Positions 1-13,686 of a stretch of DNA of 14,127 nucleotides are shown here, piece after piece. Position numbers and translations under genes: made by a program. How positions within the stretch are numbered: the stretch's first letter is position 1; every line of letters begins with the position of its first letter. The notes under the pieces are model-generated. The model was given only the letters and a program-made list of their open reading frames with translations. It searched no databases and was not told the DNA's origin. The DNA lies in the IMG/VR virus record IMGVR_UViG_3300021399_000006, positions 1-14,127 of that record. One strand, written 5' to 3'. The stretch is from a virus.

Positions 1-138
1 CCCATTCACATCAGGGGCTTTAGGTCTCACTGTATGTAGCCGGATTCACCCTTCCTATCCCCCACTCATACAGGATGGTTGATCGTTTTTATACCGCATC
101 TCCATTCTACGGTCAACTGAGCATTTGGCTCAGTTCAA

Positions 139-220
139 GCCAGCAATAGGATTTGAACCTATATCGTATTAGGCCTTACACTCCTTGGGGGAGCCGCTTT
201 ACCAATTAAGCTATACTGAC
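139..220 (-). tRNA. tRNA-like, class II length (82 nt), irregular anticodon arm; possible pseudogene
   Basis: T-arm ATAGG-TTCAAAT-CCTAT (146-162). Acceptor GTCAGTA/TGCTGGC pairs 7/7 with two G.U. D-arm GCTT/AAGC. The anticodon stem only folds with a 5-nt loop (CCCAA). The long variable region is about 18 nt. Confidence 0.4.
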
Positions 221-231
221 ATTTTTTTAGC

Positions 232-302
232 AGGGCCGGCGGGGTTCGAACCCACAAATGCAGGAATCAAAATCCTGTGTCTTACCGTTTGACTACGGCC
301 CT
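232..302 (-). tRNA. tRNA-Gln (anticodon TTG)
   Basis: Full cloverleaf: acceptor AGGGCCG/CGGCCCT, D-stem GTC/GAC, anticodon stem CAGGA/TCCTG with loop TTTTGAT, T-arm GTGGG-TTCGAAC-CCCGC, discriminator G. Confidence 0.85.
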
Positions 303-322
303 GTATACAAGAGACATTATTA

Positions 323-393
323 GTAGACCACGGGATTCGAACCCGTATATCAAAATTCGCAGTTTTGTATCTTATCCATTAGATTAAATCCAT
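323..393 (-). tRNA. tRNA with anticodon GCG (Arg); weak acceptor stem
   Basis: T-arm ACGGG-TTCGAAT-CCCGT (330-346). Anticodon stem CAAAA/TTTTG with loop CTGCGAA. D-stem ATCT/AGAT. The acceptor ATGGATT/GGTCTAC has an A1xC72 mismatch and three G.U pairs. Confidence 0.5.
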
Positions 394-439
394 TAATTTT
401 TTTTATTGCTGTGTGTCTCTTTATCAACTTTCTAAATAT

Positions 440-468
440 ATTATAATAAAAATTTTTATTTTTTTCAA
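440..468 (-). promoter_or_regulatory. sigma70-type promoter TTGAAA-17-TATAAT
   Basis: -35 at 463-468 and -10 at 440-445 (reverse complement), exact 17-nt spacer; drives leader and tRNAs at 393-139. Confidence 0.65.
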
Positions 469-472
469 ATAA

Positions 473-546
473 GCACAGAGTGGGATTTGAACCCACGAAT
501 AACGGTTTTGCAGACCGTTGCGGTAACCAGGCTGCGCCATCCGTGC
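473..546 (-). tRNA. tRNA-Cys (anticodon GCA)
   Basis: Acceptor GCACGGA/TCTGTGC, U8 and G9 present, anticodon stem ACGGT/ACCGT with loop CTGCAAA, T-arm GTGGG-TTCAAAT-CCCAC (480-496). Confidence 0.85.
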
Positions 547-587
547 AAAAAAGGTATGAAACATATAAATTTCACACCCCTTTTAAA

Positions 588-776
588 TTAATCAGCTGAT
601 TTTGCTTCAATATATTTAGGTTTAATTATAACTCGTTTTCGTAACGCATGAGTTGTCTGGAACATGCGGAAACGTGCTTCCCGCCTTGCTTCTTCTCGTT
701 CTTTTTTATCCTCAATATCATTAACAGGATTAAAAGACTCTAGGGCATTAGTGCCTACTGTTTTCCATTTAGACAT
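588..776 (-). CDS. hypothetical small protein (62 aa, basic/acidic)
   Basis: ORF with SD AAAGGAG about 8 nt upstream of ATG, TAA stop, co-directional with the operon. Confidence 0.6.
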   Translation of the reverse strand: MSKWKTVGTNALESFNPVNDIEDKKEREEARREARFRMFQTTHALRKRVIIKPKYIEAKSAD

Positions 777-788
777 TAATTTACTCCT

Positions 789-1175
789 TTAGTTAAGAAA
801 ACCTTCAAGAATTTTTACAAATTCATTACGGGTGATAGGGGTTGCCGCAGGTCTCTTTTCTTCTTTTGTCTCTTTTGTCTTTTTCTCTGAAGGCTGTTCT
901 AGAATTACTTCTACTAAATCTGCCAACCAAGGGGTTTCCTTCTCATATGTTTTAATATACTCAACAACTTCTTTGTTAAGAGCTTCAATCTTATCCTCAA
1001 GTCTTGCTCTTGCAAAAGCCTTTTCTGCTTCAAACTGTTTACGCTTTTCTGCTTCTTTACGACGTTTCTCTTCCGCTTCTGCCTCTGCCTTTTTTCTTTC
1101 ACTATCAAATTCGGCTTCAATACATTCTTTTTCTGAATCAAAAAACTCATCCAGAATTTCACTATAAAATTTCAT
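789..1175 (-). CDS. hypothetical E/K-rich coiled-coil protein (128 aa)
   Basis: ORF; SD GAGGAAAAAAGA-ATG; TAA stop; charged heptad-like repeats (AEAEAEEKRRKEAEKRK). Confidence 0.65.
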   Translation of the reverse strand: MKFYSEILDEFFDSEKECIEAEFDSERKKAEAEAEEKRRKEAEKRKQFEAEKAFARARLEDKIEALNKEVVEYIKTYEKETPWLADLVEVILEQPSEKKTKETKEEKRPAATPITRNEFVKILEGFLN

Positions 1176-1215
1176 TCTTTTTTCCTCTCTTTTTAAAATA
1201 TTTTATTAACGAAAG

Positions 1216-1288
1216 GTGGCTAACGGGACTTGAACCCGTAACAAGCGGTACCACAAACCGCTGGACTACCAAATTGTCCTATAACCAC
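1216..1288 (-). tRNA. tRNA-His (anticodon GTG)
   Basis: T-arm ACGGG-TTCAAGT-CCCGT (1223-1239). Anticodon stem GCGGT/ACCGC with loop TTGTGGT. D-stem GGAC/GTCC. Acceptor GTGGTTA/TAGCCAC. Discriminator C, as expected for His. Confidence 0.85.
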
Positions 1289-1291
1289 AGC

Positions 1292-1365
1292 TGGAGTGAC
1301 AGGATTTGAACCTGCGATACCGTGATCCCAAATCACGTGCCTTAACCAAACTAGACTACACCCCA
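1292..1365 (-). tRNA. tRNA-Pro (anticodon TGG)
   Basis: T-arm GCAGG-TTCAAAT-CCTGT (1299-1315). Anticodon stem CGTGA/TCACG with loop TTTGGGA. Acceptor TGGGGTG/CACTCCA. Confidence 0.85.
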
Positions 1366-1387
1366 ATATACAAGACACATAAATAAG

Positions 1388-1411
1388 TATTGATCTACCC
1401 ATTGATCTATT
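1388..1411. repeat. tandem direct repeat ATTGATCTAccc / ATTGATCTAttt
   Basis: Two adjacent 9/12-nt identical units between the T-arm element and tRNA-Pro. Confidence 0.4.
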
Positions 1412-1425
1412 TTGTTTTTCCTGGC

Positions 1426-1487
1426 AACAAAAATGGGATTTGAACCCATAACATATACTTTAGAGTATAAATTGCTGTATGTGTCTT
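1426..1487 (-). ncRNA. truncated tRNA-like element (T-arm plus 3' acceptor-like tail plus hairpin; no D-arm or 5' acceptor)
   Basis: T-arm ATGGG-TTCAAAT-CCCAT (1433-1449) preceded by the hairpin TATAC-TCTAAA-GTATA, whose 6-nt loop contains CUA. Upstream box AAGACACATACAGCAAT. No complementary 5' acceptor strand is found. Confidence 0.4.
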
Positions 1488-1499
1488 ATTATTAAATTA

Positions 1500-1733
1500 T
1501 TAACTTAACATAGCAAAATCTATAAATTTTTTTATATCATCTGCATTATAACAAACTAATTCCATTTCAGGAATGTCTGAATCTTCAAACATTTTAGCAA
1601 AAGCAATATATTGAGTAAGACGACTCTTTAGATTTAATCTATCGCCTTCTCCTGTTACTAATTCAACTTTTCCTGTACATTTGTCAACTGTTTCAAAAAA
1701 CTTTTCAATATCACTAATATGATATAACTTCAT
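1500..1733 (-). CDS. hypothetical protein (77 aa)
   Basis: ORF with SD AAAAGGAGAATAA-ATG; TAA stop. Confidence 0.6.
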   Translation of the reverse strand: MKLYHISDIEKFFETVDKCTGKVELVTGEGDRLNLKSRLTQYIAFAKMFEDSDIPEMELVCYNADDIKKFIDFAMLS

Positions 1734-1854
1734 TTATTCTCCTTTTATATAATCTCTATAAGCACAATATTCATCAAATGTTCCTTTGAATCCATTATTA
1801 ACAGCTTTAAGATATTCTTTGTTTAAAACAACTGAAAAATTAGTTTCCTACTAA

Positions 1855-2154
1855 TTAACTTGCATTACCGATTGCTAACTCATATTCTCTTTCCCTTTCT
1901 GCCATTGCGACAAGGCGTTTTACATCTGAATGATACCAATGTTTACCACCTCGTCTACCTTTTTCTGCCCCAAAAGCAGGTCTATGCTTTTTAGTTTTCC
2001 CGCTACAAAGAGGACAAGAGCAATGAACTTTATTCTTACTATATTGATGCAAATTATTATACCATGAGAAATGGTAAACTTGTTCTGAAATATTTCTTTT
2101 TCTAATTGCTTTTGTTACGCTATTGTGTCTTTTTTCTGCCAAAGTTCTACACAT
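1855..2154 (-). CDS. hypothetical basic Cys/His-containing protein (100 aa)
   Basis: ATG at 2154 is preceded by AAAGGAG at optimal spacing. The track ORF 1855..2307 extends upstream only through a TTG codon across the T-arm element, and that frame is closed by TAA at 2344-2346. Confidence 0.65.
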   Translation of the reverse strand: MCRTLAEKRHNSVTKAIRKRNISEQVYHFSWYNNLHQYSKNKVHCSCPLCSGKTKKHRPAFGAEKGRRGGKHWYHSDVKRLVAMAEREREYELAIGNAS

Positions 2155-2200
2155 AATAAACTCCTTTGAAACTTGATTAACGAAACATTTAACAATTAGC

Positions 2201-2224
2201 GGTGCGAGAGGGATTCGAACCCCC
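2201..2224 (-). ncRNA. T-arm plus 3' acceptor strand of a split/giant tRNA-like structure (see finding at 2201-2750)
   Basis: GGGGG-TTCGAAT-CCCTC followed by TCGCACC. There is no local anticodon or D arm. The matching 5' acceptor GGTGCGG lies about 545 nt upstream on the same strand. Confidence 0.45.
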
Positions 2225-2278
2225 AGCCCAATTAAGAGCAACGGTTTTGAAACGGTTTTAGAAGTTTTTAATAACCTC

Positions 2279-2683
2279 CTAAAAAATATAATCTTTAGCA
2301 AAATCAATATTTGCTGTTTGTCCAGATTTTGTTGGTAAAACTCTTAAAGTTTTTTCTACAAAACCATCTTTAGGAGCAGGATATAAATAAAAAATACCAT
2401 CTTTTTCAGTCATAAAAAAATCTATTTCTTTATTTGTATATTTCATTCTTTTGTTTCCTGCTCCTGTTGAATGCTGGCTATATCCATTAAAAACAAATGC
2501 ACTATGCTCTTCATCCTTCCATCGAGATGTTTTAATTTGTATTTTTAATAGTTTATTATCTACATCTAAAATAAAATCATATCTTGCATTATCAAACAGT
2601 GGTTTAGAAACAATAAAACCTGCTTCTATACATTTTAAGAAACATTTTTGCTATGTCATTGCTCCTTGAATTTGTGTATTCAT
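2279..2683 (-). CDS. hypothetical protein (about 134 codons) containing one internal in-frame TAG (2651-2653); possible nuclease-like (D..D.K) core
   Basis: Reading frame ATG(2683) NTQIQGAMT-TAG-QKCFLKCIEAGFIVSKPLFDNARYDFILDVDNKLLKIQIKTSRWKDEEHSAFVFNGYSQHSTGAGNKRMKYTNKEIDFFMTEKDGIFYLYPAPKDGFVEKTLRVLPTKSGQTANIDFAKDYIF. It is open for about 122 codons after the TAG in AT-rich DNA and ends at TAG 2279-2281 (next TAA 2258-2260). No well-spaced SD; the start is uncertain. Confidence 0.45.
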
Positions 2684-2934
2684 ATTATTATTTTTAAAAC
2701 TAATAATTCCGTTTCAAGACCGCACCTCCTCCCCACTAAGGTACCGCACCATATCAAGGCTTAAAAAGTTTCATTTTCTCTTTTTTCAGAGGTCAATTCC
2801 TATTAAGAATAAGAAATAGAAAACTTTCAAATAAAAGAAACTTGTCTATTTTACGACCAAAATTCTCCTAAGAATCATGTTAAATCTTGTAATTTTCAAC
2901 CCATTAAAAATAAAATTGCCGTATAAGCCTTAGC

Positions 2935-3021
2935 GCGGATGAGTGGATTCGAACCACCGGACCCAAATGTAGGATCAATACCTTAGCAGGGTACCGCATT
3001 AAACCTCTCTGCCACATCCGC
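2935..3021 (-). tRNA. tRNA-Ser (anticodon GCT), class II
   Basis: Perfect 7-bp acceptor GCGGATG/CATCCGC. T-arm GGTGG-TTCGAAT-CCACT. Anticodon stem TACC/GGTA with loop CTGCTAA. Long variable arm. Length 87 nt. Confidence 0.85.
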
Positions 3022-3032
3022 AAATAGGTAAC

Positions 3033-3104
3033 CACCCTTCTGGGATTCGAACCCAGGACTGTTGATTTAGAGTCAACTGACTTAGACCGCTTGTCGAAAG
3101 GGCG
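3033..3104 (-). tRNA. suppressor tRNA, anticodon CTA (reads UAG amber)
   Basis: Acceptor CGCCCTT/AAGGGTG (one G.U), U8 present, D-stem GAC/GTC, anticodon stem GTTGA/TCAAC with canonical 7-nt loop C-U-CUA-A-A, T-arm CTGGG-TTCGAAT-CCCAG, discriminator G. D-loop and discriminator are similar to the neighbouring tRNA-Gln. Confidence 0.8.
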
Positions 3105-3203
3105 TCACCAAGACAGATTAAAATTTGCTTAAATTAGATTAACAGTCCAATACAAAAATTAAAATAAATTGCTGTTTCTGTCTTTCTTTCATCTTATAAA
3201 TAT

Positions 3204-3232
3204 ATTATATAATAATTTTTTTAAAAAATCAA
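3204..3232 (-). promoter_or_regulatory. sigma70-type promoter TTGATT-17-TATAAT, followed by the conserved ATGAAAGAAAGACAGAAACAGCAA leader
   Basis: -35 at 3227-3232, -10 at 3204-3209. The first gene downstream is the CTA suppressor tRNA. Confidence 0.65.
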
Positions 3233-3243
3233 AAAATTTTTAA

Positions 3244-3354
3244 ATGCGGGCAAGGATTTGCACCTTACATGCCCTAATAGCCTTTATGCTACCAGACGTA
3301 TCGGATTATACTGGGGCTTACCTTATAAGCGTCTACCTATTCCGCCACCGCATT
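3244..3354 (-). tRNA. tRNA-Leu-like gene of aberrant length (about 111 nt) with an extra insertion between D-arm and anticodon arm; possible pseudogene or intron-like insert
   Basis: 5' region AATGCGG-T-G-GCGGAATAGGTAGACGC nearly matches the 5' region of the bona fide tRNA-Leu(CAA) here. T-arm TAAGG-TGCAAAT-CCTTG with acceptor 3' CCCGCAT. The middle region only folds as TTATA..(13 nt)..TATAA plus GTAGC-ATAAAG-GCTAT (6-nt loop). Confidence 0.4.
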
Positions 3355-3358
3355 TTTA

Positions 3359-3601
3359 TTATATTTTATATTTATATTCACTTATAATTTTACCATTTTC
3401 ATCAATATGCCATGTATGAGCACATTTAAAAGGATAATTTGCCTTATAAAGATTAATCCAAATATTTCCTCTTGGACAAAACCAATTTGCATAATTATAT
3501 CTTGCATTCATAGCATCATCAAAAGAAGTAAAAAGTTCTTTTATGCTCCCAGAATGTTCGTCATCTTCTGTTTCAATAGCATAAATATCAAAATTTAACA
3601 T
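3359..3601 (-). CDS. hypothetical protein (80 aa)
   Basis: ORF; SD AAAGGAG 9 nt upstream; follows tRNA-Val after a 40-nt gap (co-transcribed). Confidence 0.6.
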   Translation of the reverse strand: MLNFDIYAIETEDDEHSGSIKELFTSFDDAMNARYNYANWFCPRGNIWINLYKANYPFKCAHTWHIDENGKIISEYKYKI

Positions 3602-3640
3602 AAAGCAAATCTCCTTTAAAATATATTTTTAAAACGAAAT

Positions 3641-3713
3641 GCATGATATAGGATTTGAACCTATGACCCTTTCGGTGTAAACGAAATGCTCATCCCAGCT
3701 GAGCTAATCATGC
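3641..3713 (-). tRNA. tRNA-Val (anticodon TAC)
   Basis: Perfect acceptor GCATGAT/ATCATGC. D-stem GCTC/GAGC. Anticodon stem TTTCG/CGAAA with loop TTTACAC. T-arm ATAGG-TTCAAAT-CCTAT. Confidence 0.9.
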
Positions 3714-3888
3714 ATATTGGCGGGAATCTCTTTCCCGCCTAATCCGACTTTTGAATTTCACAGGTATCGGGGAGGGACCAGGGATTAAATCCAGCCCACC
3801 TTAATACTTAGTTTTCAAACATTCCTCACGAAAACTAAAAAAATGGAGGGTCTTCCATATCGCACGTGCATATTGATATAGAATAAGT

Positions 3889-3963
3889 GGACCTTATGGG
3901 AATCGAACCCATCTGACTACTAGTGTGCAAAACTAGTGACCACCCCTTGCAGTCCCAAAGCCC
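3889..3963 (-). tRNA. tRNA-Ala (anticodon TGC)
   Basis: Acceptor GGGCTTT/AAGGTCC with the G3.U70 Ala identity pair. Anticodon stem CTAGT/ACTAG with loop TTTGCAC. T-arm ATGGG-TTCGATT-CCCAT. Confidence 0.8.
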
Positions 3964-4172
3964 AGTACTAAGAGGCCTGATTACCCTCTTTATAGCAGTT
4001 TGATCCTGCTTGCCAATGACGTTATAGGTCCGCCGCCCGCACATTTATTTGCTAAAACACGGTTTCCAGGGTATCTTCGTATAGTCACATTACCGCAAAG
4101 AGATATATACCTTTATCATATTATAGACGCGTTTCTATAATATTCTCCCAAAATTTCTATTGTACATAGAAT

Positions 4173-4245
4173 ACTACGAAGTGGATTCGAACCACTGACG
4201 ACTTCCTTATCAGAGAAGCATTCTAACCTACTGAATTATCGTAGT
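4173..4245 (-). tRNA. tRNA-Ile (anticodon GAT)
   Basis: Perfect acceptor ACTACGA/TCGTAGT. Anticodon stem CTTCT/GGAAG with loop CTGATAA. T-arm AGTGG-TTCGAAT-CCACT. Confidence 0.85.
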
Positions 4246-4422
4246 AAATAAGGGTTAAAAAGAAAGGAAGAAACGCGTTTTTCTTTCATTGAATAACCTT
4301 TCTCAATTAACCATCTAATTTTTATGCCTGCCTAGCCTTACACTAGAATATTACATATGTGATAAGTTGTTCTGTTGCATCGCTATTTTGAACTATCCCT
4401 GTCTCCTTATCAAAATTAGACA

Positions 4423-4445
4423 CCTGCGCGGCCGCAGGCTTTTTG
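4423..4445. terminator. GC-rich hairpin (CCTGCG-CGGC-CGCAGG, contains GCGGCCGC) with a T5 run on the plus side and a weaker T-run on the minus side; probable end of the tRNA-Tyr/Phe transcription unit
   Basis: On the plus strand the stem is followed by CTTTTTG. On the minus strand it is preceded by AAAAAG and followed by TGTCTAATTTTG. It lies 16 nt downstream of the tRNA-Tyr 3' end. Confidence 0.45.
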
Positions 4446-4461
4446 CGGCGTCCCGCTTAGT

Positions 4462-4544
4462 CCTGGCGGAGGGAATCGAACCCACTCGGTGCCGAAGCCA
4501 GCAGATTTACAGTCTGCCCCGTCTCCTTAGCGGTCTACCCCAGG
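4462..4544 (-). tRNA. tRNA-Tyr (anticodon GTA), class II
   Basis: Anticodon stem GCAGA/TCTGC with loop CTGTAAA. Variable-arm hairpin present. T-arm GTGGG-TTCGATT-CCCTC (one mismatch). Acceptor CCTGGGG/CGCCAGG (one mismatch). Length 83 nt. Confidence 0.8.
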
Positions 4545-4552
4545 ATAAAAGT

Positions 4553-4625
4553 GCTCAGAACTAGATTTGAACTAGTAACGCGAGGATCTTCAGTCCTCCG
4601 CTCTACCTATTAGAGCTATCTGAGC
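4553..4625 (-). tRNA. tRNA-Phe (anticodon GAA)
   Basis: Perfect acceptor GCTCAGA/TCTGAGC. Anticodon stem GAGGA/TCCTC with loop CTGAAGA. T-arm ACTAG-TTCAAAT-CTAGT. Confidence 0.9.
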
Positions 4626-4703
4626 ATAACAAGACATATAATTTGTAAATAATGACTGTTTACGAGACAGTTGTCTTAACCATTTGACTACATAAGCGAC
4701 AAT

Positions 4704-4766
4704 GCTTGTGACAGGATTCGAACCTGTAAACTTACAAAAGTAAGAAGTTGCTGTATATGTCTTTGT
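4704..4766 (-). ncRNA. truncated tRNA-like element (T-arm plus 3' tail plus tetraloop hairpin), paralogous to the element at 1426-1487
   Basis: T-arm ACAGG-TTCGAAT-CCTGT (4711-4727), hairpin CTTAC-TTTT-GTAAG, upstream box AAGACATATACAGCAAC (15/17 identical to the box at 1471-1487). No 5' acceptor. Confidence 0.4.
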
Positions 4767-4834
4767 TTTTATGGATTCTTTATTTTATTTGATGTTGGTG
4801 CAGTTATTTGCCTAAATCCATATAAGCCAACAAT

Positions 4835-4914
4835 AATTCTGGTGGGATTCGAACCCACATGCCTATGACCGCAGGGTTTGAGCCTACTGCGTATACCAAT
4901 TCCGCCACAGAATC
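4835..4914 (-). tRNA. tRNA-Leu (anticodon CAA), class II
   Basis: 5' GATTCTG-T-G-GCGGAATTGGTATACGC. Anticodon stem GTAGG/CCTGC with loop CTCAAAC. 12-nt variable arm. T-arm GTGGG-TTCGAAT-CCCAC. Acceptor 3' CAGAATT. Confidence 0.85.
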
Positions 4915-4916
4915 GT

Positions 4917-4999
4917 AGTGGCGAAGGGATTCGAACCCTCAATCCTCTAACGGCAACGGATTTTAAGTCCGTCATGAATACCAGTTCCATCACGCCACC
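4917..4999 (-). tRNA. tRNA-Leu (anticodon TAA), class II
   Basis: Anticodon stem ACGGA/TCCGT with loop CTTAAAA. 15-nt variable arm. T-arm GAGGG-TTCGAAT-CCCTT. Acceptor GGTGGCG/CGCCACT. It nearly abuts the preceding tRNA. Confidence 0.85.
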
Positions 5000-5093
5000 A
5001 TATAAATTTAAACGGTTATAAAGATAAAATTTTATTATTTTTCTATTTTAACAGGGAAAAATAATAAAAGCCTGTCTAACAATTTAATAATGA

Positions 5094-5462
5094 TTACTGC
5101 TCACGAGAAGCAATAAACGCATCATATTCATCCTTGAAGCACCAAGCAAATCCATAAGCGTTATGGGTCTTAGTTCTTCCGTTTAAGGCATCGCCTACGC
5201 CTGACTTACCTTCCTGGCCAATTGCGGCAAGGGCTTCCTTCTGGGTTGCAAACTCTGCAATAACTGCATAAGTCTCGGGGTCAAGCTGAAGAACACCTGA
5301 CTTATTCGGACTCTTACGCTTACGAGCAGCTGCCGCCTCATCTTCCTCAATACGAGCAAGCATTGCTCGCAAAGCATCCATAGTCTGCTCACGAATACCT
5401 TCATTTACATCTGTAGCATTTTCAAAGTAGAAAATCAAACCTTCAATCTGTTTCTTATCCAT
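5094..5462 (-). CDS. hypothetical protein (122 aa)
   Basis: ORF with SD AAAAGGAGTAAAT-ATG, driven by a perfect-consensus promoter at 5504-5532; TAA stop. Confidence 0.7.
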   Translation of the reverse strand: MDKKQIEGLIFYFENATDVNEGIREQTMDALRAMLARIEEDEAAAARKRKSPNKSGVLQLDPETYAVIAEFATQKEALAAIGQEGKSGVGDALNGRTKTHNAYGFAWCFKDEYDAFIASREQ

Positions 5463-5503
5463 ATTTACTCCTTTTTACTCTTGTTTTTAATTTCTATAAA
5501 TAT

Positions 5504-5532
5504 ATTATACTAAAAATTTTTTATCTTGTCAA
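5504..5532 (-). promoter_or_regulatory. perfect-consensus sigma70 promoter TTGACA-17-TATAAT
   Basis: -35 at 5527-5532, -10 at 5504-5509; upstream of the SD-ATG at 5462. Confidence 0.75.
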
Positions 5533-6179
5533 CAATTGAATAACTTAATTATATCTATGAATAACACCCCTTCGGGTTGCTGGCAATAACCTTCTCTTAT
5601 ATTCGACCACCAAGGAGACATACCTGAGCGGTTAGGAGCGACCTAAACGCTATATGCCCCATCTGTTCAAGACAGATAAATCTTGTAGAGGACTTTGCAT
5701 ACCTCTAACTTTCAGCTACCTTTCAGAAAATTTACATAATAACTTGTATAAGAAGTTATTCAAATTTTGTTGTCTACGCACTTTTAGCCTACTCGTACCT
5801 TGACCCAATCTTATACACGACTTCCGCCGCTTCATGTGCGCTAACCCCTTATGGAAATTCCAAGGTTTGCAAAGTTTTCCACGCTTCACCTAACTTGGAT
5901 TAGTGCTCTCGTTAAAGAACCCTATATTATGGAGTCGATTGGAACAGTGTCTTTAAGAGCGATTACCCCAGTGCTATTGACTAAACCATTTCTTTAGACC
6001 TGGCGTTTTATACGTCACCGCATAAAAACTTTTTTCCTAAGAAAGTATCCTTCCTTATTCTGGTTATTCGTAAAGCCAATACCTCAGCGTCATGGAATTG
6101 ACGTTTATCACTGAGTTGCTTCATAAATATAACTAAATTATTCAATTGTCAATGTTCTTTTGTTGATAATTCAACATAG

Positions 6180-6249
6180 ATCTCAAGTAGGGGTCGAACC
6201 TACATCTTACCTTTTTACCAGGCGCGCACTACCATTATGCTACTGAGAT
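6180..6249 (-). tRNA. tRNA-like gene with atypical anticodon loop GGUAAAA (possible anticodon TAA, G at position 33)
   Basis: Good acceptor ATCTCAG/TTGAGAT. U8-A9. D-stem GCAT/GTGC. T-arm GTAGG-TTCGACC-CCTAC. The anticodon stem pairs 4/5. Confidence 0.45.
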
Positions 6250-6461
6250 TCCTTATATATGTATATCATCAGAAAGGAAGTGAATATAAAAAGGGATAAA
6301 CCCATTTATAACAATGCAAAGGGGAGTAGCGTGTAGCACTATCATCTAATGTTCTCCCTAGTTTTTGTTTTGGAATTTCGCCAAAAGGACTTATTTGAAA
6401 TATTGGAGAGTGCTTAGTCTCGTAATCCTTCACAGGGCTTTTTCGGTAGCCTGAACCTAAT

Positions 6462-6534
6462 AGCGGAAGTGGGATTTGAACCCACGTGATACGGCGTATG
6501 AGACCGCGCTGGTACCTCTCCAGTCCATTCCGCA
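6462..6534 (-). tRNA. tRNA-Met (anticodon CAT; whether initiator, elongator or Ile-lysidine type is undetermined)
   Basis: T-arm GTGGG-TTCAAAT-CCCAC. Anticodon stem GCGGT/GCCGT (two G.U) with loop CTCATAC. D-stem CTGG/CCAG. The acceptor has a mismatch at pair 1-72. Confidence 0.65.
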
Positions 6535-6635
6535 ATATTAATCAAGACAGTTTAAAATATAGCCTATTTAATCCTAAATTTAAATGCTTGTATTTTTTCT
6601 TTTGTTGCTGTTTCTGTCTTTCATTTTCTATAAAT

Positions 6636-6664
6636 ATTATAACAAAAATTTTTTTAAAAATCAA
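6636..6664 (-). promoter_or_regulatory. promoter TTGATT-17-TGTTATAAT (extended -10)
   Basis: -35 at 6659-6664, -10 at 6636-6641, TGn present; drives leader and tRNA-Met. Confidence 0.7.
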
Positions 6665-6854
6665 ATACGGCATATGCATCTACCGTATTAGTCTATGAGG
6701 TTTACCACTCCGCTTACCATTTTCCGCTCAGGTTAGCTTTAGGAGCCTTGCTGATGTTTTTACACTTTACTAAAACACCCTTTCCGACAGACAAACAGTC
6801 AACCTACTTATATTAATATCATTGCCTAAGGTTATATTAATACTTTTGGTAAAT

Positions 6855-6910
6855 GCTCTATGCAGGAGTCGAACCTACACTCACAAAAGTAAGTTCCATC
6901 ATAATAGAGC
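6855..6910 (-). ncRNA. 56-nt 'armless' tRNA-like minihelix (perfect 7-bp acceptor plus T-arm plus one tetraloop hairpin; no D-arm or anticodon arm)
   Basis: GCTCTAT ... CTTAC-TTTT-GTGAG ... GTAGG-TTCGACT-CCTGC ... ATAGAGC with discriminator A. The hairpin resembles the one in the 4704-4766 element. Confidence 0.45.
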
Positions 6911-6990
6911 AGTCTCCTTTTATCTCTCTTATATTTTAAAAGAGCCAAAAAATAATGCTCTGAAAGAGGAAAGTATGATACGTATCAAGT

Positions 6991-7063
6991 AGCCCCTGGG
7001 GGAATTGAACCCACCATCTTGACCTTGAAAGGGTCATATCCTGTCCTTTTAGAAGAAGGAGCC
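6991..7063 (-). tRNA. tRNA-Glu (anticodon TTC)
   Basis: Anticodon stem TGACC/GGTCA with loop CTTTCAA. T-arm GTGGG-TTCAATT-CCCCC. Acceptor GGCTCCT/AGGGGCT (all paired including G.U). Confidence 0.85.
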
Positions 7064-7087
7064 ATATTTCTTTCATTTTCTATAAAT

Positions 7088-7116
7088 ATTATAATAAAAA
7101 TTTTTTAAAATTGCAA
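7088..7116 (-). promoter_or_regulatory. promoter TTGCAA-17-TATAAT
   Basis: -35 at 7111-7116, -10 at 7088-7093; drives tRNA-Glu(TTC) after a leader of about 20 nt. Confidence 0.65.
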
Positions 7117-7266
7117 ATAAAAATGGGAACTTATATTAACACTGTATTCCCCGATAGGTTTGCGCGCGCCTTATCTTACAGCGGGTTTTCCTAAGTCCAG
7201 TTTTCCTTGTCATTCCCATGCATTTATATACCGAGCGAGAACAGACGCGGTTAAGGAGTCCTTAGT

Positions 7267-7346
7267 AGGGGACACGGGATTCGAACCCGCACGCACAGGG
7301 CACTAGATCCTAAGTCTAGGGTGGCTACCAGTTACACCAATCCCCC
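7267..7346 (-). tRNA. tRNA-Leu (anticodon TAG), class II
   Basis: Acceptor GGGGGAT/GTCCCCT. U8-G9. D-stem GTG/CAC. Anticodon stem CTAGA/TCTAG with loop CTTAGGA. 12-nt variable arm. T-arm GCGGG-TTCGAAT-CCCGT. Confidence 0.85.
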
Positions 7347-7518
7347 ATATAAGATAGATGCTTGCCATAGCTTTAGCCCCGCTCGGGTATCTATCGTACC
7401 CTATCTCATTCACTGGAGATGCAGTAAAAGTTTTACCTTTATAACTTTCAAAGATACTTATTCTTCATCGGGCGATAAGTTCTTACCTGACCCTTTCCCT
7501 TCACACCTCAAAGGATGA

Positions 7519-7585
7519 AAACGGCTATAATTTCAATAGCTTAGATTTACATTGGCAGAAGGTAAATCAACTTCTTTTTTACTCA
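7519..7585. repeat. copy A of a repeat unit (cggctat ... caaNagcttagatttaca ... gaaggtaaaNcaacttc)
   Basis: Shares three blocks with copy B. It contains the hairpins GCTAT-AATTTCA-ATAGC and AGAAG-GTAAATCAA-CTTCT. Confidence 0.5.
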
Positions 7586-7651
7586 AATTTTAAAAATTTG
7601 AGATAGGTTGAACCTACACCTAAAGGACTTTTTCCAGTAACACCCCAAAAA

Positions 7652-7740
7652 GCAAAGCGGCTATCTATCAACAGCTTAGATTTACACATTCAACCGAGTA
7701 GATTTACGTATTAATAGGAAGGTAAACCAACTTCCTAACG
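7652..7740. repeat. copy B of the same repeat unit, with a 31-nt internal insertion that duplicates tagatttac
   Basis: Hairpin GGAAG-GTAAACCAA-CTTCC, where the outer pair covaries (A-T in copy A, G-C in copy B). Confidence 0.5.
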
Positions 7741-7810
7741 ACCTAGTGGGGAATTGAACCCCAGTCTCTCGGGCGACAACCGAGTGTAATTACCTTTATA
7801 CGACAAGGCC
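7740..7810 (-). tRNA. tRNA-Asp (anticodon GTC)
   Basis: Anticodon stem CTCGG/CCGAG with loop TTGTCGC. T-arm TGGGG-TTCAATT-CCCCA. Acceptor GGCCTTG/CTAGGTC (one mismatch). Confidence 0.8.
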
Positions 7811-7997
7811 AAACATTAAATAGCTTAGTCCATTTTTTAGGCTCCCTTCTCACTATAGCCTAAATTCCACAGGTCATGACTCCTGTTACTCTAGGTAGTT
7901 CACTTATAGTCTCACTCTCCCGACTTCCGTGATTTGGCGGACTCTCTTGATGTTTATGTACACTATTAAATCAAGTCACCATTGCTATTTATGTAGC

Positions 7998-8070
7998 GGG
8001 AGCAGTAGGACTTGAACCTACGACATTTTGCTTAACAGGCAAACGCTCTAACCAACTGAGCTATACTCCC
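7998..8070 (-). tRNA. tRNA-Asn (anticodon GTT)
   Basis: Acceptor GGGAGTA/TGCTCCC. Anticodon stem TTTGC/GCAAA with loop CTGTTAA. T-arm GTAGG-TTCAAGT-CCTAC. Confidence 0.9.
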
Positions 8071-8217
8071 AAATATGAGGGTTACTTTGCGTCTTTTATA
8101 CCGTTTCCCACTAAAGCCACATATCATACGCCTCCAGACGGGCTAATAAGAATCGAGTCTGGATATTTGGTTATGCCGGTGGTAGTTTACCCTCAAAATC
8201 CATGATAACGGTTTAAT

Positions 8218-8291
8218 CATCCCTACAGGCTTTGAACCTGTGTTTCAAGATTGAGAATCTTGTGTCCTGAACCGAACTAGACGAAGGGACG
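8218..8291 (-). tRNA. tRNA-Glu (anticodon CTC)
   Basis: Anticodon stem CAAGA/TCTTG with loop TTCTCAA. T-arm ACAGG-TTCAAAG-CCTGT. Acceptor CGTCCCT/AGGGATG. Confidence 0.85.
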
Positions 8292-8300
8292 ACGGATTAA

Positions 8301-8480
8301 TTAATCCTCATATTCTGTACGTACATAATTTTCTGTTACTTCATAATGAAATCCAATCCAACCAAATCTATCTTCCAAAAATCTCACAGCAGAGAAGCCT
8401 TTAACAAATGTTATATGCTTCTGATTTACATCGTCAAGATACTCAACCATGTAGATAACAGCTGTTCTCTCATTTTTCAT
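8301..8480 (-). CDS. possible small protein (59 aa, below the ORF-track cutoff)
   Basis: ATG at 8480; frame MKNERTAVIYMVEYLDDVNQKHITFVKGFSAVRFLEDRFGWIGFHYEVTENYVRTEYED-TAA; immediately downstream of promoter 8547-8575; weak SD. Confidence 0.35.
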   Translation of the reverse strand: MKNERTAVIYMVEYLDDVNQKHITFVKGFSAVRFLEDRFGWIGFHYEVTENYVRTEYED

Positions 8481-8546
8481 AATTTAAAGACCCCCTGAAA
8501 TGATATTTTTTAGTTTGTTTTCGTTTCTTTTTCTTACGATATAAAT

Positions 8547-8575
8547 ATTATAACAAAAAATTTTTAAAAATTCAA
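8547..8575 (-). promoter_or_regulatory. promoter TTGAAT-17-TGTTATAAT (extended -10)
   Basis: -35 at 8570-8575, -10 at 8547-8552; drives the small ORF and tRNA-Glu(CTC). Confidence 0.7.
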
Positions 8576-8711
8576 ATGATATGCAGTGTGCTGTTACGCC
8601 AAAGGGAAGTCAGTCCTTACCAGTTACGGGGTGACTTTCTACTTCTATTTAATAAAATAGTCCCACTCTTTAAAAGATGGATGCTTTTAATCCTACTTTC
8701 TGCATATAAGA

Positions 8712-8783
8712 GCCACCGACAGGAATTGAACCTGCAACCGTTTGATTACAAATCAAATGCACTACCAATTGTGCTACGGGGGC
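8712..8783 (-). tRNA. tRNA-Thr (anticodon TGT)
   Basis: Anticodon stem TTTGA/TCAAA with loop TTTGTAA. T-arm GCAGG-TTCAATT-CCTGT. Acceptor GCCCCCG/CGGTGGC (one mismatch). Confidence 0.8.
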
Positions 8784-8787
8784 ATAT

Positions 8788-8860
8788 GGACCACTAGGGA
8801 TTTGAACCCTAATCTGACAGATTAAGAGTCTGCTATGTTAACCGTTAACACCAGTAATCC
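8788..8860 (-). tRNA. tRNA-Lys (anticodon CTT)
   Basis: Anticodon stem GCAGA/TCTGT with loop CTCTTAA. T-arm TAGGG-TTCAAAT-CCCTA. Acceptor GGATTAC/GTGGTCC (G.U pairs). D-stem GTGT/ACAT. Confidence 0.8.
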
Positions 8861-8971
8861 AGGTTTATACAGCTACATACCTACCATATCAGGACATTAC
8901 TCTGATTTTCTAAGTTTTTCTTAGTATGCTATGATTTTACATTATATGGTGTTATGGACCCTGTATAACAT

Positions 8972-9043
8972 GCGCTCGATGGGACTCGAACCCACGTTAC
9001 CTTGATTAAAAGTCAAGTGCTTAATCCGCTAAGCTACGAGCGC
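8972..9043 (-). tRNA. tRNA-Lys (anticodon TTT)
   Basis: Perfect acceptor GCGCTCG/CGAGCGC. Anticodon stem CTTGA/TCAAG with loop CTTTTAA. T-arm GTGGG-TTCGAGT-CCCAT. Confidence 0.9.
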
Positions 9044-9118
9044 AAAAGATATTTAATTGTTTTTTGCCCGTAGGCTTACGTTTTCGTTTCATTTCTTATC
9101 TCCTCACTTTGTATAAAT

Positions 9119-9147
9119 ATTATAACAAAAATTTTTTAAAATTTCAA
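9119..9147 (-). promoter_or_regulatory. promoter TTGAAA-17-TGTTATAAT (extended -10)
   Basis: -35 at 9142-9147, -10 at 9119-9124. It sits immediately downstream of tRNA-Gly(GCC) and drives tRNA-Lys(TTT). Confidence 0.7.
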
Positions 9148-9152
9148 ATAGA

Positions 9153-9223
9153 GCAGACAGTGGGAATTGAACCCACATTTTTAGCTTGGCAAGCTAACAT
9201 ATTAACCGTTATATTATGCCTGC
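9153..9223 (-). tRNA. tRNA-Gly (anticodon GCC)
   Basis: Anticodon stem TTAGC/GCTAA with loop TTGCCAA. T-arm GTGGG-TTCAATT-CCCAC. Acceptor GCAGGCA/TGTCTGC. Confidence 0.85.
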
Positions 9224-9422
9224 TTGAACTAGGATATATGGCCAACTTACCTAGATATATTTTAGCACCTTACCAGGCCGCACTTATTTTAACTACCATG
9301 TGCAATTGGCTGCGTGTTCACCATACCGCTGGATTGATTTACGATCAACAACGCCTTATCTCTACATTACGAATTGAATAAGGTACAATCGTCTCTATTA
9401 AAACTCAACCCGAGAAGGGTCA

Positions 9423-9493
9423 GCCCCATGTGGGAATCGAACCCACCTATCTAGCTTGGAAGGCTAGCATTTTAGCCGATAAATCAATGGGAC
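9423..9493 (-). tRNA. tRNA-Gly (anticodon TCC)
   Basis: Anticodon stem CTAGC/GCTAG with loop CTTCCAA. T-arm GTGGG-TTCGATT-CCCAC. Acceptor GTCCCAT/ATGGGGC. Confidence 0.85.
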
Positions 9494-9500
9494 AAATATA

Positions 9501-9561
9501 AAAACTATTAAAGGTACGTTTTATTGGTGGTATGCGGCACGCACTTGATTTTAATAGTTTT
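9501..9561 (-). promoter_or_regulatory. leader stem-loop (12-bp inverted repeat AAAACTATTAAA / TTTAATAGTTTT enclosing a GC hairpin) followed by a T-rich tract, between the promoter and the tRNA-Gly genes; possible attenuator or processing site
   Basis: Perfect 12-bp arms at 9501-9512 and 9550-9561, nested inner stem TGCG/CGCA, then TTTTTATATTT before the tRNA 5' end. Confidence 0.4.
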
Positions 9562-9577
9562 TATTTGTTATGATAAT

Positions 9578-9606
9578 ATTATATCAAAAATTTTTGAACA
9601 TTTCAA
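9578..9606 (-). promoter_or_regulatory. promoter TTGAAA-17-TGATATAAT
   Basis: -35 at 9601-9606, -10 at 9578-9583; followed by a structured leader before tRNA-Gly(TCC). Confidence 0.7.
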
Positions 9607-9620
9607 ATTATTTTTGACCT

Positions 9621-9920
9621 TTATTTAGAAAAATAATATTTCCGCCAATATTTATAAAAATCTTTTAATGTAGGATAATCTTCTTGCCAAAGACTTCCAT
9701 TAGGGTCAGGATGAAAATATTCAAATTTAGCATCTTCCCATGTCCATCTACTAATATAATCATGTATATCGTAGGTTTCAAAGACTTTTTTATAAGCATT
9801 TCCATTAGGAAGAATAATTTTACTATGTCTTATTTTTTTATTTGCGTGTCTTTTGTTTCTTTTAGGAGTAGGCGTACGCCCATCTGTATAAACAGGATTC
9901 TTTTTATATGAACGTGACAT
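9621..9920 (-). CDS. hypothetical basic protein (99 aa)
   Basis: ORF; SD AAAGGAGAAAAAT-ATG; TAA stop. Confidence 0.65.
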   Translation of the reverse strand: MSRSYKKNPVYTDGRTPTPKRNKRHANKKIRHSKIILPNGNAYKKVFETYDIHDYISRWTWEDAKFEYFHPDPNGSLWQEDYPTLKDFYKYWRKYYFSK

Positions 9921-9936
9921 ATTTTTCTCCTTTAAT

Positions 9937-10007
9937 TGCGGGGATAGGATTCGAACCTACAATCACCGGGTCAAAAACCGGCCGCTTTACCGTTAGCGTA
10001 CCCCGCG
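9937..10007 (-). tRNA. unusual tRNA with an E. coli tRNA-fMet-like acceptor stem (CGCGGGG ... CCCCGCA-A, C1xA72) and an 8-nt anticodon loop UUUUUGAC (UUG or UUU reading; Gln-like D-loop)
   Basis: T-arm GTAGG-TTCGAAT-CCTAT. D-stem CGCT/AGCG perfect. The anticodon stem GCCGG/CCGGT closes an 8-nt loop. D-loop AACGGTAA and loop TTTTGAx resemble the tRNA-Gln at 232-302. Confidence 0.5.
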
Positions 10008-10143
10008 TACTTATCATACCATTTCACCTGTTTTGTGGCTAGCTATTCCACCCCACCGTGCTCATCACTATTATTTTAATCATTCCCTTGGTAATACTCT
10101 TTGATAAGTATAATACATATTTTGACGTCTTGTATGTATTAGT

Positions 10144-10217
10144 AGGGGACCTGGGACTCGAACCCAGGACACGCACCTTATAAGGATGCTGCTCTCACCT
10201 GACTGAGCTAGTCCCCT
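10144..10217 (-). tRNA. tRNA-Ile (anticodon TAT, reads AUA)
   Basis: Perfect acceptor AGGGGAC/GTCCCCT. D-stem GCTC/GAGC. Anticodon stem GCATC/GGTGC with loop CTTATAA. T-arm CTGGG-TTCGAGT-CCCAG. Confidence 0.8.
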
Positions 10218-10254
10218 AAACGGGATATTTTTTATCCCTTAACTTTATAATAAT

Positions 10255-10283
10255 ATTATAACAAAAAATTTTTAAAAATACAA
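10255..10283 (-). promoter_or_regulatory. promoter TTGTAT-17-TGTTATAAT
   Basis: -35 at 10278-10283 (4/6 match), consensus extended -10 at 10255-10260; drives tRNA-Ile(TAT). Confidence 0.55.
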
Positions 10284-10292
10284 ATTAATTTT

Positions 10293-10580: not shown

Positions 10581-10589
10581 AATAACTCC

Positions 10590-10926: not shown

Positions 10927-10955
10927 ATTTTACTAAAATTTTTCAATTTTTTCAA
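10927..10955 (-). promoter_or_regulatory. promoter TTGAAA-17-TAAAAT
   Basis: -35 at 10950-10955, -10 at 10927-10932; upstream of the CDS at 10590-10898. Confidence 0.5.
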
Positions 10956-12427: not shown

Positions 12428-12456
12428 ATTATAACAAAAAAAATAAAAAAAATCAA
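12428..12456 (-). promoter_or_regulatory. promoter TTGATT-17-TGTTATAAT; the -35 overlaps the upstream terminator stem
   Basis: -35 at 12451-12456, -10 at 12428-12433, TGn present; drives the CDS at 11756-12394. Confidence 0.65.
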
Positions 12457-13657: not shown

Positions 13658-13686
13658 ATTATATAAAAAATTTTAAAAAAAATAAA
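13658..13686 (-). promoter_or_regulatory. putative promoter with good -10 (TATAAT) and weak -35 (TTTATT), downstream of a terminator
   Basis: The AT-rich cassette tatatatattatataaaaaattttaaaaaaaataaa resembles the other promoter cassettes and is followed by SD-ATG at 13620. Confidence 0.35.

Follow-up and report, generated by a model that had tools for sequence, protein, structure and literature searches.

tRNA Islands and Amber Recoding in Phages

The tRNA regions of phages T5, T4 and KVP40, as well as those of huge phages, are clusters of tRNA genes lying on one strand, among which small open reading frames (ORFs), homing endonuclease genes and phage promoters are found. The features of the T4 and T5 regions are established knowledge, and a large phage tRNA cluster as such is expected, known biology. 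The island described here occupies about 10 kb of the minus strand of a 14,127-nucleotide stretch of viral DNA (positions 1 to 14,127 of IMG/VR record IMGVR_UViG_3300021399_000006, hereafter the window) and shares all of these features. What distinguishes it from the T5, T4 and KVP40 regions is that its tRNA set appears to be complete and minimal, that about 12 near-identical promoters divide the island into units, and that it carries an amber suppressor tRNA, a ROOL RNA and Y-RNA-like elements.

A second group of described systems comprises the crAss-like phages, the Lak phages and Phassvirus phAss-1, in which early genes look standard, TAG codons occur within late or structural genes and a tRNA-Sup(CTA) is encoded among many tRNAs (10.1101/2021.08.26.457843; PMC10607447). 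The present locus is alike in each of these respects. The genome of phAss-1, for which a host among the Clostridia has been predicted, measures 135,976 bp and encodes 36 tRNAs (PMC10607447), so that genome size is also comparable, at ~125-136 kb across the two phages. In the crAss-like, Lak and Phassvirus phages, however, the residue aligned with TAG is Gln and the suppressor belongs to the Gln type, whereas here that residue is mainly Glu and the suppressor shows features of the Glu type.

The genomic setting of the window is given by ENA contig ERZ12302851 NODE_124 (124,767 bp), which is 100% identical to it across 11,175 overlapping bases and includes an exact match to the 128-aa protein encoded at 789..1175 of the window. 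This identical contig is labelled L006 below, the other L-numbers being related loci. A syntenic relative in IMG/VR, with 75-94% DNA identity, lies on a 133-kb contig, and the relatives carrying the same array are IMG/VR viral contigs of 80-184 kb; that is, these are a clade of large phages with a common tRNA island. Taken as a whole, the explanation that we hold with good confidence is that the island is the tRNA and non-coding RNA region of a ~125-kb tailed phage, likely of the gut or rumen. Within it, the double proposal that TAG is translated as Glu through a Glu-type tRNA(CUA) of the array, and that endonuclease-only introns at position 36/37 of its tRNA genes and those of its relatives are spliced by a protein-dependent, non-group-I route, is one on which we find the balance to be even.

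The Meaning of TAG

The amber suppressor gene, tRNA(CTA), is located at 3032..3104 on the minus strand (ARAGORN; Rfam 56.4 bits) and is characterized by a C1-G72 pair and a variable loop of 4 nt. It is kept in L004, L005 and other relatives, with compensatory stem changes that include the anticodon stem. The 'Pyl' label assigned to it by ARAGORN was discarded, as it is a default name only. Among the candidate users of this tRNA, seven late genes on the strand opposite to the array in the identical contig (L006 14922-18405, minus strand of that contig) hold 7, 1, 1, 1, 1, 2 and 4 in-frame TAGs, 17 in total, with no in-frame TGA or TAA. The window itself contains seven sense TAGs: four in the C-terminal tail of ORF 11705-12394, where the tail and all 4 TAGs are kept in a relative; one in ORF 10930-11655, opposite which homologs of 37% and 32% identity have E; one in ORF 13712-14092, aligned with Q; and one at codon 11 of the intron endonuclease ORF 2279-2683, inside the Pfam domain. 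In view of the in-frame TAGs in late and window genes and of the conservation of tRNA(CTA), the suppressor is predicted to be needed for phage genes, and its expression from the island would render the late genes with sense TAGs translatable. The suggestion of an earlier, sequence-only reading of this DNA (the first-pass annotation) that the array may be supporting a code change is thereby strongly supported.

To read the meaning of TAG, the translated ORFs of all loci were aligned with one another with TAG entered as X, the longest frame at each place was retained and the codon opposite each TAG was recorded. In the sub-clade of the window, the codons opposite TAG were GAA in 41 cases, CAA in 12, GAG in 7 and AAA in 5. 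Counted by majority residue per site, the 56 TAG sites of this sub-clade gave E at 27, Q at 7 and K, N and D at 4 each. In L018 alone, 20 TAG sites correspond to E and 4 to Q, and several keep E in a homolog that is just 41% identical; in L012, TAG stands in place of the catalytic Glu of HEITH, the HExxH motif of a small protein. A sister lineage served as control: L037, L038, L039, L030 and L050 gave Q at 14, 12, 9, 4 and 4 sites, respectively, and E was the majority at none, which argues that the method yields Gln where Gln is meant. Other ways of arriving at the amino acid were set aside. Distant homologs alone (<75% identity, conserved columns) proved too sparse and noisy, a pool of every locus and frame confounds lineages and brings in spurious frames, and GAG and CAG counts in the late genes are both depleted and hence uninformative. 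With Glu at each TAG, the tail of ORF 11705-12394 would read EEKGEDEDEILDTILEEF.

The structure of the suppressor points in the same direction. In suppressors of the Glu lineage, positions 1 and 72 form a Watson-Crick pair, the variable loop has 4 nt and the D loop is large; in those of L042, L051 and L056, U1 is mismatched, the variable loop has 5 nt and CCA is encoded. For the L042 suppressor, the nearest tRNAs of the same locus are the tRNA-Gln genes. Absence of residue 47 is characteristic of tRNA-Glu, and the amidotransferase GatCAB requires a U1-A72 pair, so that a suppressor charged with Glu would be expected to stay Glu even in an amidating host. A plausible route is that host glutamyl-tRNA synthetase (GluRS) would charge the Glu-type tRNA(CUA) and that no amidation would follow.

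A number of observations weigh against glutamate. Q is the majority residue at 7 of the 56 sub-clade sites, and at the TAG site of the intron endonuclease, the only one with a solved homolog, I-Ssp6803I has Gln. That site is not decisive as an arbiter, since 14 clade paralogs carry E there against the Q of I-Ssp6803I. In addition, the TAG sites of close relatives are not independent events, and the argument from tRNA identity depends on rules that hold for other bacteria. These points bear on the classical genetic code 15, in which TAG means Gln and the excess of Glu would be due to frequent Glu-to-Gln replacement or to non-independence of the sites. Code 15 can appeal to the seven Gln-majority sites, to the Gln of I-Ssp6803I and to the Q aligned with the TAG of ORF 13712-14092, and all phage amber reassignments found in the literature are to Gln (10.1101/2021.08.26.457843; PMC10607447; PMC9523058). 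Two of its marks, in-frame TAGs and a suppressor, are present here; the third, alignment of TAG with Gln, is seen at only a minority of sites in the sub-clade. Indeed, the pipeline that in the sister lineage yields Q and not a single site with an E majority returns E 27 versus Q 7 here, and GAA, which needs two changes to become TAG, is still commoner opposite it than CAA and CAG. The TAG at the catalytic HExxH Glu of L012, and a suppressor with neither the U1 mismatch nor the 5-nt variable loop, likewise speak against Gln. We consequently regard code 15 as unlikely and glutamate as the probable meaning of TAG in this lineage.

The only natural TAG-to-Glu code known to us is that of peritrich ciliates. 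We infer that such a code would be new for phages; a literature phrase search for TAG or UAG to glutamate returned nothing on phages, and the main survey of recoded phages describes only TAG-to-Gln and TGA-to-Trp where the phage code differs from that of the host (10.1101/2021.08.26.457843).

Endonuclease-Only Introns in the Anticodon Loop

Two known kinds of tRNA intron resemble the one found in this array. The bulge-helix-bulge introns of archaea and eukaryotes share with it the pairing between anticodon and intron, while the group I intron of cyanobacterial tRNA-fMet, which encodes I-Ssp6803I, shares an endonuclease of the same PD-(D/E)XK family placed in an anticodon-loop intron. The intron described here differs from the I-Ssp6803I intron in that it lacks the terminal G, has no Rfam group I match, sits at the 36/37 site and pairs with the anticodon through its end.

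The split gene is tRNA-Ser(TGA) at 2199..2750 on the minus strand, which ARAGORN reports as one additional tRNA, interrupted by an insert of ~465 nt, when introns are allowed. Junction geometry places exon 1 at 2714-2750, the intron (466 nt) at 2248-2713 and exon 2 at 2199-2247. The program's own label for 2199-2750, Glu(ttc), was rejected in favour of Ser(TGA) because of the long class-II variable arm, G73, the G1-C72 and G2-C71 pairs and synteny with L005, in which the gene order Sup(CTA), Ser(GCT), intact Ser(TGA) matches the order in the window. The intron ORF, at 2279..2683 on the minus strand, encodes a PD-(D/E)XK homing endonuclease of the I-Ssp6803I family (Pfam PF11645, E 8.9e-25; PDB 2OST, E 6e-12) and takes 405 of the 466 nt, leaving only ~60 nt non-coding.

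The clade contains at least 11 such introns, in Ser, Gln, Arg, Pro, Glu, TTT-anticodon, Thr and Met tRNA genes; besides the window they occur in L003, L004, L020, L024, L026, L045 and L054, with inserts of 454-829 nt. All 11 inserts are placed between positions 36 and 37, and the last 3 intron nucleotides pair with the anticodon, with one mismatch in 3 of them. The resulting helix extends 8-10 bp into the 5' end of the intron. The two Ser introns have differing ends, GAAACGG/CCGTTTC in one and CTCAATC/GATTGAG in the other, each paired; the helix therefore appears to be kept by compensatory change.

Neither of the two known splicing architectures fits these inserts. A group I intron was rejected for the Ser(TGA) insert, which has no room for a core of ~200 nt, no Rfam match and no terminal G. 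Specifically, Intron_gpI gave no match at E<5 in the window and none at E<0.1 in six related introns, whereas a tRNA-Leu(UAA) intron gave the only Rfam group I match in the same search. The end signature of group I, a U ahead of the 5' splice site and a G at the intron end, is also missing, as 9 of the 11 introns end in A and the last base of the 5' exon, anticodon base 36, is free to vary. A bulge-helix-bulge intron, which has two 3-nt bulges on either side of a 4-bp helix and usually lies at 37/38, was rejected as well, given that the helix here is continuous across the 5' splice site and free of bulges, and that the insert lies at 36/37. Removal by protein-dependent cutting and ligation is proposed, a proposal for which we see the odds as level; otherwise, the endonuclease gene would merely have broken a dispensable tRNA gene.

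Apparent true group I introns do occur in the tRNA-Leu(UAA) genes of relatives (L018 1878-2784, L020 2211-2627, L045 3768-4079 and L056 9283-9626). They end in ...GAGTAGTAAG before AAAATCC, one of them contains an HNH-type ORF, and they look unlike the introns at position 36/37.

Stem Elements and a Ro60-Like Protein

In bacteria and phages, the Ro60 protein (Rsr) is encoded beside YrlA, an RNA with a closing stem in which T arm, acceptor-like hairpin and D arm follow in this order (PMC4201824). A comparable combination is suggested at this locus by a family of RNA elements in the array and by a gene that follows it.

The elements share the motif AAG-N(5-8)-ACAGCAA, present in six copies in the window and only on the minus strand. 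Between 68 and 169 nt past the motif, the exact complement of its first bases occurs, followed by G, and a tRNA begins ~5-15 nt further on. Across non-redundant loci, a perfect 7-nt downstream complement accompanies 40 of 102 motif instances, with 22 different stem sequences, against 0 in the upstream control; of the ~90 copies known from the clade, ~40% have a tRNA-like module inside. The interiors of the six window copies are diverse. One (309..421) encloses the real tRNA-Arg(GCG), two short forms (3110..3184 and 6544..6620) enclose small AT-rich hairpins, the long form (2756..2931) has the stem AAGGCTTA/TAAGCCTT, and two (1372..1487 and 4631..4763) hold permuted tRNA-like modules in which a hairpin, T arm, acceptor-like hairpin and D arm succeed one another.

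The permuted elements are YrlA-like. At 1369-1487 the full-length YrlA model was aligned with 29.3 bits (E 0.0068 for the window, 6.8e-5 locally), and the element at 4631..4763 scored 19.9 bits with YrlA and 33.1 bits with the tRNA model in its 5' half. When 13 homologs were folded with RNAalifold, four parts were recovered, namely the outer stem, the T arm, the acceptor-like hairpin, whose tip is usually N-CCA, and the D arm; of 20 base pairs, 16 show compensatory changes. An interpretation of 1372-1487 and 4631-4763 as circularly permuted tRNA genes of the red-alga type was replaced by the YrlA-like one, owing to the full-model Rfam alignment and the covariation. Some of the irregular tRNA-like pieces of the array are thus best read as modules of Y-RNA-like elements.

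The gene in question lies on the identical contig beyond the low end of the window, where an RlaP-like nucleotidyltransferase gene (L006 12304-13074; weak Pfam match, E 0.007) and a gene for a 502-aa DUF2828+DUF7788 protein (L006 13298-14806, ~1 kb past the array end) are found, about 1.1-3.6 kb past that end. The DUF2828 structure was modelled from a 94%-identical homolog, and in a Foldseek search of the PDB the top 13 matches of the model were all Ro60/TROVE proteins, whose fold joins a helical TROVE ring to a vWA domain; the alignments span ~500 columns, at E values from 2e-6 to 6e-4. Against the PDB, neither sequence nor profile comparison of the protein gave a Ro60 match, so that Ro60 was reached by the fold search alone. 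Homologs of DUF2828 occur in 705 GenBank phage records, one of which is annotated 'Ro-like RNA binding protein'; the genomic context of a Bacillus phage homolog of this Ro-like gene offered nothing useful. Within IMG/VR the protein is encoded in 48 loci, on contigs of up to 184 kb, and in most of them a same-strand tRNA array is located upstream of the DUF2828 gene. The model suggests that the DUF2828 protein has a divergent Ro60-like fold, and the stem elements could be the Y-RNA-like partners of this divergent Ro protein.

The system would differ from Ro60/YrlA in several respects. The protein belongs to Pfam DUF2828/DUF7788 and not to TROVE, the RNAs score 20-31 bits with a gathering score of 69, and there are six RNA copies within a tRNA array, with a genuine tRNA inside some of them or no more than a small hairpin. 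Against the Y-RNA interpretation it must be said that the YrlA (RF02553) scores of 29.3 and 19.9 bits are far under that gathering score, that the published Ro-binding motif GNCGAAN0-1G (PMC4201824) is absent and AAG-N(5-8)-ACAGCAA stands in its place, and that the DUF2828 model is of moderate confidence (pLDDT 72.6), with template-modelling (TM) scores of 0.27-0.36.

The tRNA Genes and Their Decoding Capacity

With default settings, ARAGORN predicted 28 tRNA genes at 138-10217, every one on the minus strand; Rfam at its gathering score also gave 28 tRNA matches, 26 of them in common with ARAGORN. The first-pass annotation had counted about 27 canonical tRNAs in a ~10-kb minus-strand array at 139-10217, to be dropped should automated predictors reject most of them. 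They do not, and all 27 manual calls were found by at least one predictor.

The following genes were called by both programs, all on the minus strand: tRNA-Cys(GCA) at 472..546, His(GTG) at 1215..1288, Pro(TGG) at 1290..1365, Ser(GCT) at 2933..3021, Val(TAC) at 3639..3714, Ile(GAT) at 4171..4246, Phe(GAA) at 4551..4625, Leu(CAA) at 4834..4914, Leu(TAA) at 4915..4999, Met(CAT) at 6460..6535, Leu(TAG) at 7265..7346, Asp(GTC) at 7738..7811, Asn(GTT) at 7996..8070, Glu(CTC) at 8216..8292, Thr(TGT) at 8710..8783, Lys(CTT) at 8786..8861, Lys(TTT) at 8970..9044, Gly(GCC) at 9151..9223, Gly(TCC) at 9422..9493 and Ile(TAT) at 10142..10217. To these are added tRNA-Gln(TTG) at 230..302 (Rfam 63.7 bits), whose ortholog in L004 is interrupted by a 463-nt intron, and tRNA-Arg(GCG) at 321..394 (Rfam 51.4 bits), inside the stem element already described. 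The counterpart of the latter in L004 (16283-16356) has the anticodon TCT; since these two changes stay within Arg and keep C35, the comparison argues that the gene is functional.

Two ARAGORN calls fall under the Rfam tRNA threshold, namely tRNA-Ala(TGC) at 3887..3963, which has an unusual D arm and the G3:U70 pair of tRNA-Ala, and the class II tRNA-Tyr(GTA) at 4460..4544, which has an ortholog in L004. Conversely, Rfam alone detected tRNA-Glu(TTC) at 6990..7063 (42.9 bits), the L004 ortholog of which is called Glu(ttc) by ARAGORN, and 4633-4697, which is part of a Y-RNA-like element.

The irregular members mentioned in the first-pass annotation are real features of the array. An 83-nt tRNA-like gene at 138..220, called Trp(CCA), has a long variable arm and no U33 (ARAGORN; Rfam 45.1 bits). 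At 6179..6249 lies a 71-nt tRNA-like gene, detected by both programs, with the loop GGTAAAA and again no U33; its L004 ortholog has the loop AATAAAA. The tRNA at 9936..10007 (ARAGORN; Rfam 50.8 bits) is Gln(TTG)-like with an anticodon loop of 8 nt (TTTTTGAC), whereas its ortholog in L004 has a normal 7-nt Gln(TTG) loop, ATTTGAT; it could be a decaying duplicate or a reader of quadruplets. Several tRNA-like fragments are also found. A minihelix at 6850..6915 (Rfam 26.9 bits; 97% conserved in L004) consists of a 7-bp acceptor arm, a T arm and a UUUU-loop hairpin, without a D arm. At 3254..3352, sequence reading and folding indicate an unclassified tRNA-like structure of ~100 nt, with a Leu-type D arm, extra arms and the T loop TGCAAAT; neither ARAGORN nor Rfam called it and it has no counterpart in L004.

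Beyond the low edge of the window, the identical contig encodes four further tRNAs: a regular 73-nt Trp(CCA), an Ala-like gene, Arg(ACG) and Arg(TCT). Together with these, the window tRNAs provide anticodons for all 20 amino acids, with one U34 tRNA per four-codon box. Assuming that U34 reads the whole box, the sole unread codon is CGG (0.2% of codons) and 99.8% are covered. The set thus has the composition of a complete minimal decoding set and not of a rare-codon supplement, and the phage could in principle decode its whole genome with its own tRNAs.

Compensation for codon bias is the textbook account of phage tRNAs, and the first-pass annotation had considered it side by side with the code change. 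As the only purpose of the array, with the suppressor incidental, it would find support in the phage genes, which are AT-rich with a strong preference for A/T-ending codons. In contrast, the array also serves rare codons that end in G or C, through the tRNAs Glu CTC, Lys CTT, Leu CAA and Arg GCG, the set spans all amino acids and the sense TAGs require a suppressor, which makes this account improbable. It is one of the points to be set against our explanation, together with the fact that every functional claim on the island is drawn from sequence and that the irregular genes 138-220, 6179-6249, 9936-10007 and 3887-3963 may be non-functional.

A different emphasis, compatible with our explanation, is placed by self-sufficiency or counter-defence. 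That is, a full set would sustain translation when host tRNAs are degraded in a phage-induced shut-off or cleaved by host anticodon nucleases, and the code change would be a secondary use. The completeness and minimality of the set, which is not selective, agree with this account, as do the RlaP-like nucleotidyltransferase and Ro60-like protein encoded after the array and the Y-RNA-like RNAs within it; a survey of jumbo phages also ties phage tRNAs to RNA-repair genes (PMC7824862). On the other hand, the ~30 kb examined revealed no gene for an RNA ligase, an anticodon nuclease or host shut-off, and the RlaP match is weak (E 0.007). We retain self-sufficiency as a tentative account of why so many tRNAs are carried, and keep to the explanation in which the island supplies a full decoding set and the suppressor that rewrites TAG. 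In that explanation, the ROOL and Y-RNA-like RNAs of the island and the Ro60-like and RlaP-like proteins encoded just downstream suggest that the tRNA pool might also be monitored or repaired in infection.

Promoters and Small Genes

A repeat search returned a family of 12 members, each of ~40 nt and all on the minus strand, with the consensus ATTTGAAATTTTAAAAAATTTTTGTTATAATATTTATAGAAA, that is, a -35 element TTGAAA, a 17-nt spacer and TGnTATAAT. A promoter scan (<=14 mismatches over 42 positions) gave the 12 sites plus the palindromic mirror of one, with 0.07 in shuffled sequences; four copies lie within 3 mismatches of a 36-mer, where zero are expected. The copies match 9-12 of 12 sigma-70 consensus positions, and the TG of an extended -10 is present in several. 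Of the 'many identical strong promoters' announced by the first-pass annotation, the abundance stands, on the minus strand, and the identity does not, as the copies are only near-identical.

Nine of the 12 copies fall within 139-10285 or at its edge, and three upstream of the array. The former, given from -35 to -10 on the minus strand, are at 440..468, 3204..3232, 5504..5532 (TTGACA-17-TATAAT, 12/12 consensus positions), 6636..6664, 7088..7116, 8547..8575, 9119..9147 (the reference copy), 9578..9606 and, at the start of the array, 10255..10283. Upstream of the array, also on the minus strand, the copy at 10927..10955 is predicted to drive ORFs 10590-10898 and 10293-10580, that at 12428..12456 ORF 11705-12394 with its 4 sense TAGs, and that at 13658..13686 ORF 13381-13620. 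Conservation extends to the 17-nt spacer (AAAAATTTTT; TTTTAAAAAATTTTTGT, e.g., in the copy at 9119-9147) and to ~12 nt past the -10 element. Spacer conservation beyond what a promoter needs suggests a bound regulator or a requirement of DNA shape.

About ten copies of this sigma-70-type promoter would each start a short transcript with one to several tRNAs and often a small early protein gene; in six cases, a conserved-stem leader element would be included as well. Release of the tRNAs would then fall to RNase P and 3' processing enzymes of the host.

The interleaving of small protein genes with the tRNAs, another element of the first-pass annotation, holds well. Eight minus-strand ORFs of 59-128 aa lie in the array and are conserved as proteins down to 35-40% identity: 588..776 (62 aa; 63% identical in L012), 789..1175 (128 aa; conserved in relatives), 1500..1733 (77 aa; 77% to 34% identity, 4 loci), 1855..2154 (99 aa; 98% to 37%, 11 loci), 3359..3601 (80 aa; 88% identical in L004), 5094..5462 (122 aa; 94%, 69% and 64% identity), 8301..8480 (59 aa; 92% to 40%) and 9621..9920 (99 aa; 83% to 35%, 8 loci). 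Searches of these ORFs against Pfam and PHROGs gave no informative family. In addition, sequence reading identified a mini-ORF of 23 codons at 9021..9092 on the minus strand (MKRKRKPTGKKQLNIFCARSLAD, MKRKRKPTG...), with a GAGGAG ribosome-binding site, which overlaps tRNA-Lys(TTT) and begins ~27 nt past a promoter -10 element. Its Lys/Arg-rich start, covering the first ~10 codons, is conserved in L004 and partly in L002. A possibility is that it might act as a leader peptide sensing the supply of Lys-tRNA.

ROOL RNA and the Origin of the Array

ROOL RNA near phage tRNA islands is a published setting (PMC5737381; PMC12286853). Here a full-length ROOL lies at 5545..6139 on the minus strand (Rfam RF03087, 276.7 bits with a gathering score of 99.1; model positions 1-574), and ROOL is also present in L004, L024 and L045. 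Nothing essential differs from the known ROOL and GOLLD settings; the U33-less tRNA-like gene 6179-6249 precedes ROOL, ~40 nt upstream, also in L004, and the promoter of perfect consensus follows it. This tRNA-like gene may direct the processing of ROOL at its 5' end.

Bacterial genomes, too, contain long tRNA arrays that include GOLLD or ROOL (PMC5737381; PMC8421152), so that an array of a bacterial chromosome or plasmid, comparable to the long arrays of mycobacteria, or a prophage remnant in place of an active phage, has to be weighed. The array, however, lies on a contig of 124.8 kb, and relatives of similar size are catalogued as viral. In the PHROG searches the flanking genes match families of unknown function only, the genes on the opposite strand are TAG-recoded, and no bacterial housekeeping genes were seen. 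A bacterial array is, in our judgement, very improbable. The phage origin of the array is supported by the identical contig, the IMG/VR relatives, the PHROG matches and the recoding that the late genes appear to have undergone. Family searches named no virion gene, and a megablast search of GenBank phages gave no nucleotide match to the window. The host is probably a Firmicute of the gut or rumen, on account of the ROOL RNA and of the extended -10 promoters.

As an observation on the related 8.4-kb viral contig L005, a tmRNA gene (2485-2742; tag ANEYQMAA) was found within its tRNA array.

Implications

The locus would offer a clean case of a phage that brings its own complete decoding set and, with one further tRNA, rewrites a stop codon. 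If TAG means Glu in this lineage, pipelines that apply code 15 put Gln in place of Glu in its proteins, catalytic residues included, and host GluRS would join GlnRS and TrpRS as an enzyme that can be exploited for code change. The stem elements, in turn, are a candidate RNA partner for a widespread family of Ro60-like phage proteins. Finally, introns that consist of little but an endonuclease gene and pair with the anticodon pose a testable question, that is, whether ribozyme-free tRNA splicing exists in bacteria or phages.

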